DNA of 64,000 nt, taken from positions 3,501-67,500 of the forward strand of contig JAFSLT010000070.1 of NCBI GenBank assembly GCA_017448285.1, given 5' to 3'. The stretch is from Clostridia bacterium. Its GTDB lineage: Bacteria; Bacillota; Clostridia; Oscillospirales; Acutalibacteraceae. The translations under genes and the position numbers were made by a program. Below, piece by piece: positions 23,618 through 60,624 of this stretch. The notes under the pieces are model-generated. The model was not told the DNA's origin and did no database searches. It saw only the letters and a program-made list of their open reading frames with translations. Position 1 is the stretch's first letter; each line of letters opens with the position of its first letter.

Positions 23618-23646
23618 TTGACAAATTTTTTCCATTGTTATATAAT
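23618..23646 (+). promoter_or_regulatory. Leader-family promoter block
   Basis: cTTGACAaatttt, 17 bp spacer, TATAAT (23641..23646). Confidence 0.6.
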
Positions 23647-23711
23647 CGAGATATCTGAAGCATTGCTTTTCTCAAAATATTATTCAAAATCTTAATTAAG
23701 GTGGTTCCTGT

Positions 23712-24395
23712 ATGAAGAAATTTGGTAGAGATAAAGTCGCGTTATTTCTTGCGTGTGCGTCAGTTTTAGGTAGTAAAACCCATGCTATGGATAAAAACAA
23801 AGCTCAAAACCCGCAAATCGCTGTGGAAGTAAGGAAGAAGGCAAGTTCTTGTTCTAAAGAAATACCTAATTGGTTAAAGATTTTAACGGATATTATGGAT
23901 ATTTTAGGAGTTGCTTCGGCAGTTGAGCTTTACAACGAAATTATGGGCGGAATTTATGGTACAAATTGGTATTTGGGCAAATATTCTATTGTGAATTATC
24001 TTAGACAGCAAAGTGAACATTTAGATGCTTTATTGAAAAAATTTAAAGATGCATCTAAAGAATCCACAAAATCCAATGAATATTTTTTGAAACGCAGGCA
24101 ATTTTTAATTGATATTTATACAAGTGTTTTTAAAGGACAATATAATTTTATTACTAAAGATAAAGGGCAAATTGAAAAACTAAAGTCAATTATAAGTTTT
24201 ATTCTTGAACCAAATATTGCAAAAAATATAAAAGTTCGACTTCATGAATACGGTAAAAACAATCTAGCATACAGATTCTGTATTGATGAGAAAGAAGAGT
24301 TTGAATTGTTAAAGAGAAAAAATAGTGCTTTTTTATTTTTTAATAATGAAGGAGTTCTTAAAATCGATTTGCAAGAAGTCAAACACAAAAATTAA
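23712..24395 (+). CDS. Leader-family protein (function unknown)
   Basis: Leader MKKFGRDKVALFLACASVLGSKTHA. The NEIMGG...GKYSIVNYL block is paralogous to the gene at 34924. Confidence 0.7.
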   Translation: MKKFGRDKVALFLACASVLGSKTHAMDKNKAQNPQIAVEVRKKASSCSKEIPNWLKILTDIMDILGVASAVELYNEIMGGIYGTNWYLGKYSIVNYLRQQSEHLDALLKKFKDASKESTKSNEYFLKRRQFLIDIYTSVFKGQYNFITKDKGQIEKLKSIISFILEPNIAKNIKVRLHEYGKNNLAYRFCIDEKEEFELLKRKNSAFLFFNNEGVLKIDLQEVKHKN

Positions 24396-24458
24396 AATAA
24401 CTTGTAAAGCCATGATATGAATTAAATTCTTTTTAAAACTGAAAAATTGAATTAAAAA

Positions 24459-24487
24459 ATTTCTCTCTGGCTATGCCGGAAAGAAAT
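24459..24487. repeat. PE copy (slightly degenerate)
   Basis: atttctctctggctatgccggaaagaaat. Confidence 0.75.
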
Positions 24488-24562
24488 TTTTAACATTAAT
24501 TTACGAAATCATTAATTAATTTTTCCGTACTAATTTTTATTATTTAAAAATCGAACAAGTCA

Positions 24563-24586
24563 TTTCTCCGGCGACGCCGGAGAGAA
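24563..24586. repeat. PE copy
   Basis: tttctccggcgacgccggagagaa. Confidence 0.85.
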
Positions 24587-24689
24587 CAATTAAGTATTGA
24601 GTTTTGATGCAATTTTGTTAATTATTTTCATACTTATTTTATCAACTCTATCTTCATCGCTTAAAATAAAGTTTGAAGCGAACATTAAT

Positions 24690-24980
24690 TTAAATTTTAA
24701 CACTTTCAAACGTAATATTAAATTCACGAACAACCTCAGAAGTAGGTTTAGCAACCCCATCCTCAATATCACTTTCTTTTGTGTCCCTTGCATAATTTTC
24801 CACTCTCATTTTTAATGTTTTAAAATCATCAGACAATTCTAATATTCTCTTAGTTGGCGATTCAGATGTACAATCAATAGCATAATTACGTTCGAACTGC
24901 AACGTATTAATAGCACCTACTTTTCCGCATATCGATGCCAACAAACATGCAACCGCTAAACCTTTTCTGTTCTTTGACAT
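24690..24980 (-). CDS. Small leader-family protein, possibly truncated by a frame break
   Basis: Leader MSKNRKGLAVACLLASICGKVGA after RBS GGGGGTG. A protein-like reading continues in another frame down to 24590. Confidence 0.55.
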   Translation of the reverse strand: MSKNRKGLAVACLLASICGKVGAINTLQFERNYAIDCTSESPTKRILELSDDFKTLKMRVENYARDTKESDIEDGVAKPTSEVVREFNITFESVKI

Positions 24981-25038
24981 AAACGCTTCACCCCCAAAAA
25001 TTTTTATTTATTTGTCCACCGTAAAACAGACTACATTT

Positions 25039-25067
25039 ATTCTATCAAAACAAGATAAGTTTGTCAA
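25039..25067 (-). promoter_or_regulatory. Leader-family promoter block
   Basis: On the minus strand: aTTGACAaact, 17 bp spacer, TAGAAT. Confidence 0.55.
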
Positions 25068-25134
25068 TCATATTTTTGAGGTATTGTAAAAAAAACAGAT
25101 ATTCTCCCCGGCAACGCCGAATAAGATGGCGTTA

Positions 25135-59149: not shown

Positions 59150-59225
59150 TGGAGCTACTGATCCGAACCGAACGGACGACCTGCTCATTACGAGTGAGCT
59201 GCTCTGCCTGCTGAGCTACAGTAGC
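59150..59225 (-). tRNA. tRNA-Thr (anticodon CGT), CCA encoded
   Basis: The minus strand GCTACTGTAGCTCAGCAGGCAGAGCAGCTCACTCGTAATGAGCAGGTCGTCCGTTCGGTTCGGATCAGTAGCTCCA folds as a canonical 76-nt cloverleaf. Confidence 0.9.
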
Positions 59226-59235
59226 ATAAAGTTTA

Positions 59236-59264
59236 ATTTTAGTACTTAAATTAAAAAAATTCAA
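59236..59264 (-). promoter_or_regulatory. Candidate tRNA-Thr promoter
   Basis: On the minus strand: TTGAAT, 17 bp spacer, TAAAAT, ending about 10 nt before the tRNA 5' end. Confidence 0.5.
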
Positions 59265-59342
59265 TAACAATCGGCATTGCTATACTTAAAAGCCTTTAGA
59301 ACTATTTTTTTTTAAAAAATTGATTTTTTTGAGAAATATCTA

Positions 59343-59371
59343 TTGACAAGTTCATAAGTGTATGATATGAT
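59343..59371 (+). promoter_or_regulatory. Promoter, upstream copy
   Basis: TTGACA, 17 bp spacer, TGaTATGAT. Confidence 0.45.
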
Positions 59372-59479
59372 AAAAATAATGTATGATTTCATACATGATG
59401 TAAAATTGAATATGATGCATACTTAGGAGCCTTTAGAACTATTTTTTTCCAAAAAATTGATTTTTTTGAGAAATATCCA

Positions 59480-59508
59480 TTGACAAGTTCATAGGTGTAT
59501 GATATGGT
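59480..59508 (+). promoter_or_regulatory. Promoter, downstream copy
   Basis: TTGACA, 17 bp spacer, TGaTATGGT. Confidence 0.45.
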
Positions 59509-59562
59509 AAAAACAATGTACGATTTCATACATAATAATGATTGATAAGGAGAGCGATTTTT

Positions 59563-60180
59563 ATGTCTATAAAGAATTTTTCCAAGATAACCGCAGTTTA
59601 TCTTTTAAGTGTTTTTGGTATGCTTGTTGTTAATAATAATAACACCAGAGTTAGCGCAATGAACCCCTCGAACCTCTCTTCTAAACCTAAAGTATCTTCA
59701 GTATCTTCAGTATCTTATAAACCTGGAATGTCTTCTATGACCAAAACAGTTAACCTCAGACTGAATGATGACAGTGAAAGTAGCTTTGAAATTAATAACG
59801 ACAATGATGTTTCAATGAAGGAGGACATGAATGTGGAAAATAAAAATTTGGAACGATCAAATCTAAAAGAACTATTAAAAGCAAAAGCTGTGTCAGTGGG
59901 AGGTAAAGAAGAACATAAATTTAACAAAAAAGAAAGTAAAACAAAAGAAAAAGAAAGTAAAACAAAAGAAAAAGAATCTGAGAAATCAGTACCACCTTCG
60001 CAGCCTATGTCAACTGGTAAAAAAGTAGGAATTGTTGCAGCAATAGTAGCAGGAGCAGCTGCACTTGGCACGGGTATTTATGCTCTTTGCCAAAAAGTTT
60101 CAAGAACATCATCATCATCAAGAAGTAACATTACTCCACAAATTAATGCAAGTACAAATAAAATTACAAATGCAAATTAA
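59563..60180 (+). CDS. Secreted Ser/Lys-rich repeat protein with a C-terminal Gly/Ala-rich TM anchor
   Basis: ATG 59563 follows AAGGAGAG. Signal MSIKNFSKITAVYLLSVFGMLVV...VSA, KESKTKE repeats, and KKVGIVAAIVAGAAALGTGIYALCQK. Confidence 0.7.
   Translation: MSIKNFSKITAVYLLSVFGMLVVNNNNTRVSAMNPSNLSSKPKVSSVSSVSYKPGMSSMTKTVNLRLNDDSESSFEINNDNDVSMKEDMNVENKNLERSNLKELLKAKAVSVGGKEEHKFNKKESKTKEKESKTKEKESEKSVPPSQPMSTGKKVGIVAAIVAGAAALGTGIYALCQKVSRTSSSSRSNITPQINASTNKITNAN
59929..59976 (+). repeat. In-frame 21-bp tandem repeat (about 2.3 units)
   Basis: aaagaaagtaaaacaaaagaa x2 plus a partial unit. It encodes KESKTKE repeats. Confidence 0.85.
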
Positions 60181-60220
60181 AATTTAACCACTTCCGTCTG
60201 AAGCCGGAAGTGGTTAAATT
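60181..60220. terminator. Perfect 16-bp stem-loop between convergent genes (bidirectional terminator candidate)
   Basis: aatttaaccacttccg-tctgaagc-cggaagtggttaaatt, starting 1 nt after the stop at 60180. Confidence 0.6.
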
Positions 60221-60246
60221 TATCTTTAAATTTATTCCATATATTA

Positions 60247-60624
60247 TCATTCATGCCGCAAGCTAAACTTTTTCAACAATATTTCTATATTATTGGTTTT
60301 TGCTATATTATTATCATCATTATTGGCTTTGGTCGTATTATTATCATTATTATTGGTTTTTGTTATATTATTATCATCAGAATTTTTTTTATTATTAATT
60401 TTTAATGCACATACAGTTGTTACAACAATTCCGGCAATAATAATAGCGCCTACGCCACCTAAAATACCATACTTTTTTATTTTGCTTAAATGGTTTTTTG
60501 AAGAAACCGTGCTTATTTTTGTATTATTTTTGGAAATTTCATCTTTTTTTAGTGCCAAAGTTTTGCCGTTAAAAATTGACATACATGTTAATAATACAGA
60601 TGCTATTTTTTTGTAACCTCTCAT
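60247..60624 (-). CDS. Leader-family membrane protein with an Asn/Asp-rich decapeptide repeat tail
   Basis: Leader MRGYKKIASVLLTCMSIFNGKTLA, helix KKYGILGGVGAIIIAGIVVTTVCALK, then three copies of (D)DNNITKTNN-like units. Confidence 0.7.
   Translation of the reverse strand: MRGYKKIASVLLTCMSIFNGKTLALKKDEISKNNTKISTVSSKNHLSKIKKYGILGGVGAIIIAGIVVTTVCALKINNKKNSDDNNITKTNNNDNNTTKANNDDNNIAKTNNIEILLKKFSLRHE
60289..60378 (-). repeat. In-frame 30-bp tandem repeat x3
   Basis: Units at 60289..60318, 60319..60348 and 60349..60378 (attattggtttttgctatattattatcatc and variants). Confidence 0.9.

Follow-up and report, generated by a model that had tools for sequence, protein, structure and literature searches.

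A dispersed, lineage-specific family of leader-bearing proteins with a candidate poly-G phase switch in an uncultured spore-forming Clostridium

Surface protein families that are turned on and off by simple repeats are textbook material for a few, mostly Gram-negative, pathogens and for mycoplasmas. Campylobacter jejuni possesses poly-G/C contingency genes, and Helicobacter pylori carries CT repeats in the leader region of hop, oipA and sabA. The opa genes of Neisseria comprise about 11 complete, scattered paralogues with their own promoters and a CTCTT repeat in the signal-peptide coding region; they switch independently, recombine with one another and vary in their mature parts (PMC4534519). 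In the Vlp, Vsa and Vpma families of Mycoplasma, a conserved 5' end comprising promoter and signal peptide precedes divergent mature regions, and switching occurs copy by copy (PMC4534519, PMC2268961). For gut commensals, the work that we found describes DNA inversions and a single pilus case, that of the sortase-dependent pili of Bifidobacterium breve, in which replication slippage in an intragenic G tract was found by error-corrected sequencing to decide the surface structure (PMC9187656). The DNA studied here is a 64,000-nucleotide (nt) stretch, hereafter the window, of contig JAFSLT010000070.1 from an uncultured Clostridia bacterium, which contains members of a gene family with a shared promoter and leader and, in some members, a poly-G tract behind the leader. 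Our best reading, held with moderate confidence, is that these genes form a dispersed, lineage-specific family that encodes slipped-strand phase-variable, exported or membrane-anchored proteins. The proposed mechanism is of a kind already known, that of the simple-sequence contingency locus, here in a multigene family whose 5' end is conserved.

A first-pass annotation of the window had grouped at least ten loci as one multigene family on account of a similar leader. All ten listed start codons and leader peptides were found where it had placed them, but the profile scores showed that the ten do not constitute one family. A family profile built on 91 database members was run over the window in all six frames; it replaced an earlier 8-sequence leader profile, which had missed 60624 and the orthologue of 53656 (loci are named by the position of their start codon). 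Four of the ten were demonstrably homologous with the 91-member profile: 23712 (23712..24395, plus strand, 227 amino acids (aa), in frame) scored 90.8 bits, 38654 (plus strand) 74.3 bits, 34924 (34924..35796, plus strand, 290 aa, in frame) 71.6 bits, and the divergent member 60624 (60247..60624, minus strand, 125 aa) 52.2 bits over profile positions 7-122. All remaining open reading frames (ORFs) of the window scored at most 9.4 bits, including 24980, 41306, 43711, 47160, 63701 and a vWA gene at 58102, while the best chance match outside the lineage, in 1.33 Mb from 80 related Oscillospirales loci, reached 13.4 bits. For the first five of these the leader similarity does not rise above the ordinary Sec background. 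As judged by sequence, they, the vWA gene and a GTPase gene at 61459 appear indistinguishable from genes with generic Sec leaders or anchors, and the AAA ATPase, the GTPase and the OGFr_N protein, earlier grouped or linked with the family, do not belong to the family by this profile. At 53656 the 5' remnant of a member is left (53477..53656, minus strand), in which the leader and about 15 further codons remain behind an intact consensus promoter at 53769 (minus strand). In a tblastn comparison it matched only residues 1-41, at 71% identity, of an intact syntenic orthologue in a sister strain (L092:583-1614, 344 aa, 26 bits), which occupies the same position beside a cation ATPase gene. Here and below, L-numbers (L083-L107) denote the database loci or alleles that were compared, and P-numbers denote database proteins or protein clusters.

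A loose leader-motif scan gave 8 matches in the window and 7 in the 1.33 Mb around gyrB in 80 related genomes, none of the latter being real signal peptides. A leader followed by one later hydrophobic helix was present in 4 of the 44 called window genes versus 5 of 1346 in the outgroup loci. The library-wide profile search recovered 168 clusters at E ≤1e-3 among 1.84 billion protein representatives; all came from uncultured rumen or gut Clostridia and none from the 80 related genomes, which bears out the earlier suggestion of a lineage-specific repertoire. The 36 homologues of 34924 were likewise all from uncultured organisms, and a scan of JGI metagenomes with the family alignment yielded only 3 loci. 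Core members had no match in Pfam, NCBIfam, PADLOC or PHROG. One NCBI metagenome-assembled genome (MAG; locus tag IJQ10_) contains at least four members, which are therefore paralogues within one genome, homogenised at the 5' end, and the sister strain L092 has four leader-bearing genes in 15 kb. Further divergent members were seen in L092 at 14118-15044 and 5644-6015; one of them carries a CCCCCC run (Pro-Pro codons) about 80 nt after its start, at a position equivalent to the poly-G tract described below.

The shared 5' cassette spans about 300 bp and consists of a sigma-A promoter, a 5' untranslated region (UTR) of about 65 nt, a strong ribosome-binding site (RBS), a signal peptide, a linker of the form NPQT(V/L)(A/G)AVGG, and a hydrophobic or Gly/Ala-rich helix. 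The cassette of 34924 (34805..35104, plus strand) has its -35 box at 34826, followed by a 5'UTR of about 70 nt, the RBS, the leader and the linker. From -119 to +180 its DNA is 74-94% identical to that of the paralogue L090, which lies at a different locus and has an unrelated C-terminus; five of six 50-column bins were at or above 0.90, and identity dropped abruptly to about 40% on either side. The comparison of L083 with L090 gave the same picture, and within the set of 34924, L083 and L090 each pair was at or above 0.86 in all but one 50-column bin. A consensus sigma-A promoter precedes 23712 (23618..23646, plus strand; TTGACA, 17-nt spacer, TATAAT), and 38654 has the promoter TTGACA, 17-nt spacer, TATACT (38565..38593, plus strand). 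The shared promoter and RBS claimed in the first-pass annotation hold for the core members, where the likeness goes beyond a common match to the consensus. The family promoter is simply the sigma-A consensus. Eight window sites match the -35 box perfectly and the -10 box with no more than one mismatch, and seven of these lie upstream of leader-bearing genes, each monocistronic. No fold of the 5'UTR was significantly better than those of shuffled sequences (z -1.9 to +0.8), and no Rfam match was found there. Recombination or gene conversion would keep the cassette near-identical between paralogues, which are single copies dispersed between housekeeping operons, the downstream housekeeping genes often lying on the other strand. 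An origin in a prophage or defence island was rejected, as there was no phage or defence family match and an integrase adjoins only one member. Elsewhere in the window, a 118-nt direct repeat (59282-59399 and 59419-59536; 92% identity, 137-nt spacing) duplicates the consensus promoter region before the leader-bearing gene 59542/59563.

The common N-terminal part of the proteins comprises approximately 80-130 residues: a leader, often Met-Asn, the linker, a Lys-rich stretch and the helix. The consensus of the leader is M-[SK]-K-F-x-[KR]-K-x-I-A-x-x-L-A-x-A-x-[LF]-G-x-K-T-x-A and that of the linker N/S-P-Q-T-[VL]-[AG]-A-V-G-G-A. The leaders read as Sec/signal peptidase (SPase) I substrates: the n-region is basic, the h-region has 10-12 residues, and positions -6, -3 and -1 are occupied by Gly, Thr and Ala, respectively (for example, MSKFDKK-TIATVLAFAALF-GNKTSA). 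The h-region is too short to score as a membrane span, and the leader would be cleaved and the products exported. A lipobox, L-[AS]-[GA]-C, was absent from the end of the h-region in the leaders examined; leaders of the 34924 type have no Cys, and in other leaders the Cys stands midway along the h-region, as part of F-L-A-C or L-V-C. A lipoprotein (SPase II) leader was rejected for want of a lipobox, and YSIRK, KxYKxGKxW and SipW-cognate leaders were rejected because no NCBIfam/TIGRFAM leader model matched the ten proteins at E ≤1. The helix occurs in two subtypes, one strongly hydrophobic and followed by Lys (38654, 60624, L086a), the other Gly/Ala-rich and followed by (Y/N)-E-[VI]-x-G...G-[KR]-[YF]-[ST] (34924, 23712 and the intact 53656 orthologue). 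In 23712 the leader MKKFGRDKVALFLACASVLGSKTHA is succeeded by the linker NPQIAVEV, which has no G tract, a weakly hydrophobic helix, the motif YNEIMG..GKYS and an orphan C-terminal domain. The 60624 protein consists of the leader MRGYKKIASVLLTCMSIFNGKTLA, a Lys-rich linker, a transmembrane helix and an Asn-rich tail, and its gene also has no G tract. The Gly/Ala-rich helix of the first-pass annotation was recovered in 34924, 38654, 41306, 43711, 60624 and 58102, but in 38654 it can be read only across a frameshift.

This frameshift had been overlooked, and 38654 had been taken for one continuous gene; both leader and helix exist, but they are split at a run of seven G residues (G7). The leader ORF (38654..38833, plus strand; identical to P0054, which is on 12 contigs) ends after 59 codons, losing frame at the G7 tract (38768..38774, plus strand) within the AVGG codons, and the helix quoted earlier lies in the -1 frame. 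The downstream part (38743..39426, plus strand; gene-caller start TTG 38824) is open in that frame, contributes a further 32.6 bits at profile positions 46-129, and encodes the transmembrane helix KIAIGLGVGLGVVSIGVISTIIALAI, then KGK, then a confidently folded orphan domain. Addition of one G restores the frame and gives AAVGGGSSKFNKLTKKQKIAIGLGV..., which matches the full-length in-frame orthologues P0075 and P0208-P0211. No other G/C run in the window reaches six bases, and the tract is likewise the sole run of that length in L083.

At least seven paralogues carry a tract of G5-G9, the kind of repeat that marks a contingency locus, at 109-130 nt from the ATG, and both tract length and frame differed between syntenic alleles at four loci. 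At the integrase-gmk-priA locus, the alleles L098-L102 (protein on 18 contigs) are in frame with G7, and L083-L085, from three samples, are out of frame with G9. At the L090/L087 and L104/L091 loci, the in-frame allele has G7 and the out-of-frame allele G6; at the L086/L103 locus the corresponding lengths are G7 and G9. The shifted frame of the off alleles was open for 218-258 codons at all five out-of-frame loci. GGG accounts for 11% of Gly codons, and GGG-GGG was used for none of the 42 Gly-Gly pairs in 18 housekeeping genes; GGG GGG G is therefore a codon choice otherwise avoided by the genome, and the tract is kept against codon bias. Members that lack the tract have no Gly-Gly at that position (IAVEVRKK in 23712, IRAVSSNS in L086b, AVRRGEAS in L089), so that AVGG makes more sense as a property of the DNA than of the protein. 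Of the 164 database representatives, 58 have fewer than 100 aa; approximately 27-39 of these (42-90 aa) follow the family up to AAVGG, after which similarity is lost in out-of-frame tails such as RLLALINQSNKGLPRTKN.

In the proposed mechanism, slipped-strand mispairing in replication would add or remove one or two G residues and thereby bring the sequence downstream of the leader into frame or take it out. Every copy would be switched on or off independently, and the off state would yield only a harmless leader peptide of about 60 residues. Such switching, proposed here from assembled alleles, would be frequent and reversible within a population. The window would then hold 23712 and 60624 in the on state without a tract, 34924 in the on state, 38654 in the off state (G7) and 53656 as a decayed remnant. 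The linker tract of 34924 is interrupted (GGGGGAG, 35032-35038), and this gene would therefore be locked on. A second slippage-prone site was noticed in the 34924 subfamily, an A7/A8 run in the TIKKT/TAKKT codons (35203-35209 in the window), and three database alleles, P0037, P0038 and P0051, lose frame exactly at this run (...TAKKQLSIG).

Behind the common N-terminal part the proteins are unrelated. By their C-termini the 125 long members form at least 57 groups that BLAST does not connect, and when the profiles of the 34924 and 38654 subfamilies were compared with hhalign, residues 3-65 alone aligned. AlphaFold2 (AF2) models of the C-terminal domains of 34924 (residues 96-290) and 38654 had predicted local distance difference test (pLDDT) values of 80-96 and above 90, respectively, and both were of an alpha+beta soluble type. 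A profile search against PDB sequences returned nothing below E 0.5. An Opa-type eight-stranded beta-barrel was rejected on the grounds that there was no Pfam match, that the AF2 models are of the type just described, and that the relatives are Gram-positive-type organisms. The ratio of nonsynonymous to synonymous divergence (dN/dS) was 0.7-1.8 in the C-terminal parts versus 0.02 in a neighbouring gene. The C-terminal parts thus evolve fast, as would be expected of exposed, variable proteins, and their frames are open at dS 0.39, which fits diversifying selection on a folded domain. The products would be membrane-anchored or surface proteins under diversifying selection by phage, host antibody or competitors, and the repertoire as a whole, variable and lineage-specific, is probably envelope-associated.

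Several observations weigh against reading the family as phase-variable surface proteins. The same out-of-frame G7 is present in 38654 in all close alleles sampled (window, L105 and L106; at most 6% DNA divergence; 7 protein clusters), and the downstream ORF has a dN/dS of about 1. The invariant tract and this ratio fit fixed inactivation as well as a mostly-off gene, and 38654 could be a mostly-off gene, a young pseudogene or a case of -1 recoding on GGG GGG G. The out-of-frame G6 allele L087 lacks 44 nt including the -35 and -10 boxes of the promoter (L087:3545-3590 compared with L090), and some off copies are thus decaying. ATGC stands at both ends of the deleted block, and this copy seems to be on its way to loss and not switched. 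Tracts of G6-G7 are at the lower end of the lengths known to be hypermutable. Foldseek searches of both AF2 models against PDB and BFVD gave nothing below E 6e-3 and no template modelling (TM) score above 0.3, and no function could be assigned. Finally, Lys residues on both sides of the transmembrane helix make the topology ambiguous, so that the variable domain could lie in the cytoplasm.

The first of these points are also what would be expected if a real family were decaying under relaxed selection at a hot spot, the tract being a mutational weak point and the off alleles young pseudogenes, an explanation that we consider unlikely but credible. It would account for the C-terminal dN/dS of about 1, for a 38654 gene that is out of frame in every close allele, for the additional loss of the L087 promoter, for the allele L107, which is broken instead by a 34-nt duplication, and for the remnants at 53656 and in L092-L097. 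It accounts poorly for five out-of-frame loci that, where examined, are broken only at the tract and stay open over the lengths given above despite a GC content of 32%; for 38654 alone, the chance of no stop after 51 random substitutions in a frame of about 200 codons is 0.077. Frames are still open in paralogues at dS 0.39, at least seven paralogues retain the tract although codon bias disfavours it, and in-frame and out-of-frame alleles coexist at four loci. L107 (JGI Ga0061015_12023939) is a more distant orthologue of 38654 with an interrupted in-frame tract, GTAAGCGGGGTAACT; its duplication is a tandem one in the codons of the transmembrane helix and represents an independent inactivation route. 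Relative to L105, the 38654-39970 region has a dS of 0.41 in the conserved 151-aa neighbour (39515-39970) and 0.02 in the family gene, and queC has no synonymous differences; this mosaic divergence suggests recent recombination across the region.

The ambiguous topology leads to a different picture of the cargoes. A cleaved leader followed by a stop-transfer helix would place the variable domain in the cytoplasm. If the order is indeed signal peptide, short ectodomain, transmembrane helix and cytoplasmic domain, the switched cargoes face inward and would serve phase-variable, membrane-tethered intracellular functions such as phage exclusion or abortive infection, and would not be antigens. A doubtful and more far-reaching proposal, which includes this inward-facing variant, is that promoter, export leader and stochastic switch travel together in the 300-bp cassette as a portable unit. 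Recombination in this lineage would place it on many unrelated cargoes, producing a combinatorial phase-variable envelope proteome in a spore-forming anaerobe of the gut that is of Gram-positive type.

Phase variation by slippage in DNA remains our preferred reading also over programmed recoding, in which the out-of-frame form would be the working form, expressed at a fixed low level through -1 slippage of tRNA-Gly on GGG GGG G or G addition by RNA polymerase. Each of the five out-of-frame alleles for which DNA was examined requires a -1 shift, the G run should allow perfect re-pairing in the P site, and the same G7 arrangement with both ORFs intact persists across 38654 alleles that are 6% apart in DNA. 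We nevertheless judge recoding improbable: other strains have simple in-frame G7 alleles of the same genes, more distant orthologues are in frame with an interrupted tract, and P0047/L103 is restored equally by removing two Gs or by adding one. The G-tract switch of Bifidobacterium has also been attributed to replication slippage and not to recoding (PMC9187656).

Sequencing or assembly errors in the homopolymer are a very improbable source of the frame differences. Homopolymers do invite errors, and the tract is where several database ORFs stop, which may coincide with contig ends, but each state recurs in independent samples (G9 in three assemblies, G7 in at least five, G6 in six) and on contigs named in both the scaffold_ and the k141_ style, probably the output of different assemblers. 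Illumina consensus sequence resolves homopolymers in the G6-G9 range. We also give next to no credence to the view that AVGG is a double-glycine processing site at which an ATP-binding cassette (ABC) exporter with a C39 peptidase would remove the N-terminal 40 residues as a leader. A Gly-Gly is present, and two ABC transporter genes immediately precede L090, the first of them encoding a C39 peptidase domain, but the N-terminus is hydrophobic, basic and of Sec type, not an amphipathic acidic double-glycine leader. The Gly-Gly is missing from the tract-less members (23712, L086b, L089), and such an exporter stands beside only one member, L090, and next to none of those in the window. The window does encode a secreted Peptidase_C39_2-family protein (51142-51969, minus strand; E 2e-21), which has its own signal peptide and is not an ABC exporter.

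The window has a GC content of about 32%, and its parent is the 107-kb ENA metagenome contig XIEF21-1_SAMN15829942 scaffold_598. Among the matches listed, GyrB is at most 71% identical to species representatives, the nearest of those matches being animal-gut genomes of uncultured Ruminococcaceae, Oscillospiraceae and Acutalibacteraceae. Close protein relatives come only from uncultured material, including two NCBI 'Clostridia bacterium' MAGs (locus tags IJQ10_ and J6P21_). The sample names XIEF21 and STEW19, taken as those of ruminant metagenome studies, point to a ruminant (rumen or gut) origin. SpoIVA and SipL are encoded in the window, and Spo0A and the spoIIA/sigF operon on sister contigs; the source organism is therefore a spore-forming gut Clostridium and not an obvious intracellular symbiont. 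Also in the window, an HPr-like PTS protein (30365-30757, minus strand, 130 aa) has a seeming Ser-rich insertion of about 40 residues mid-protein; the call on the parent contig has 129 aa, and its Pfam PTS-HPr match is recorded as weak.

The first-pass annotation had offered, as one possible explanation, a surface or effector repertoire of a host-associated bacterium. In its effector form this view would unite all the leader-bearing genes, at least ten and including the AAA ATPase and the GTPase, in one repertoire delivered to a eukaryotic host. OGFr_N, Roc/Ras, AAA and vWA domains are common in eukaryotes and do lie behind Sec-like leaders or anchors here. This view is hardly tenable, in that those genes fail the family profile, the spore-forming source is related to luminal, free-living Oscillospirales of the gut, and no secretion system, host-targeting feature or other sign of delivery into host cells was seen in the 64 kb.

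The loci set apart from the family are heterogeneous. The 96-aa ORF 24980 (24690..24980, minus strand) has a generic Sec-like leader and a strong promoter, and scored 4.1 bits on the 8-sequence profile and under the 1.4-bit floor of the 91-member match list. The 41306 protein (40551..41306, minus strand; 5.1 bits) consists of a leader, a transmembrane helix and OGFr_N (PF04664, E 5e-5), the N-terminal domain of the opioid growth factor receptor, which is named after, and was first described in, a eukaryotic protein. The small protein 43711 (43711..44058, plus strand; 6.0 bits) has three hydrophobic segments. The 915-aa protein 47160 (44413..47160, minus strand) has an N-terminal Sec-like anchor, a long helical middle and a C-terminal AAA domain (PF00004), with weak similarity to the anti-phage ATPase IetA/IteA (E ~1e-8). 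The 438-aa leader-bearing orphan 63701 (62385..63701, or 62385-63716 in the longer span, minus strand; 2.9 bits) lies upstream of a Roc/Ras-type small GTPase gene (61459-62400, or 61459-62364 in the shorter span, minus strand; Pfam Roc, E 2e-13), in which the P-loop directly follows an N-terminal hydrophobic anchor. These two genes, neither of which matches the family profile, overlap by 16 nt and therefore probably form one operon; the N-in orientation predicted for the GTPase would put the GTPase outside the cell. NTPase domains behind Sec-like anchors are a puzzle separate from the family.

What is new here is a protein family that had no model in the libraries searched, its host, an uncultured spore-forming rumen Clostridium, and the presence of one cassette on more than 50 unrelated tails. 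If the favoured reading is correct, this would be an example of family-wide switching in such an organism, obtained from metagenome assemblies alone. It would explain the dozens of leader-only ORFs of about 60 aa and of headless 200-aa ORFs in annotations. The findings define a new orphan N-terminal module that is fused to more than 50 unknown domains, and correct the earlier grouping by setting the leader-bearing AAA ATPase and GTPase apart from the family. Tract length is a marker that can be read in existing rumen metagenomes to ask what selects each state. The family would gain further in interest if its cassette turned out to be a mobile module for expression, export and switching, or if the switched cargoes worked within the cell.

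Compared with known systems, the family resembles polymorphic toxins in its conserved N-terminal trafficking module and swapped, unrelated C-terminal domains, but it differs from them in having no recognisable toxin domain, no obvious downstream immunity gene and a size of only about 200-375 aa. A polymorphic toxin system was rejected because no Pfam, NCBIfam or PADLOC domain was found and the downstream genes are housekeeping genes, small unannotated ORFs not having been searched exhaustively. The Mycoplasma Vlp, Vsa and Vpma families share with it a conserved promoter and leader on divergent mature regions; they are clustered lipoprotein genes with a lipobox, switched by a promoter poly-A tract or site-specific inversion, whereas the genes described here are dispersed, lack a lipobox and have their poly-G tract in coding sequence. 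Like the contingency genes of C. jejuni and H. pylori, the family combines a low-GC genome with rare, strain-variable G/C homopolymers or dinucleotide repeats at the 5' end of surface-related genes. Those organisms, however, are Gram-negative pathogens in which mostly glycosyltransferase or outer-membrane protein genes are affected, without a common 5' cassette on unrelated cargoes. The B. breve pilus genes match in having intragenic poly-G tracts in a Gram-positive gut commensal, slippage in the present case being proposed from assemblies; they constitute two pilus clusters with LPXTG pilins and not a dispersed family with a common promoter-leader cassette. The likeness to opa lies in dispersed copies, each with its own promoter, a slippage repeat in the 5' coding region that would switch each copy, and variable mature parts. 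In opa the repeat is a CTCTT pentamer inside the signal-peptide codons, whereas the tract of this family is poly-G and stands just after the predicted cleavage site; and where opa encodes homologous beta-barrel adhesins of a Gram-negative pathogen, this family carries unrelated orphan domains in a Gram-positive-type gut commensal.

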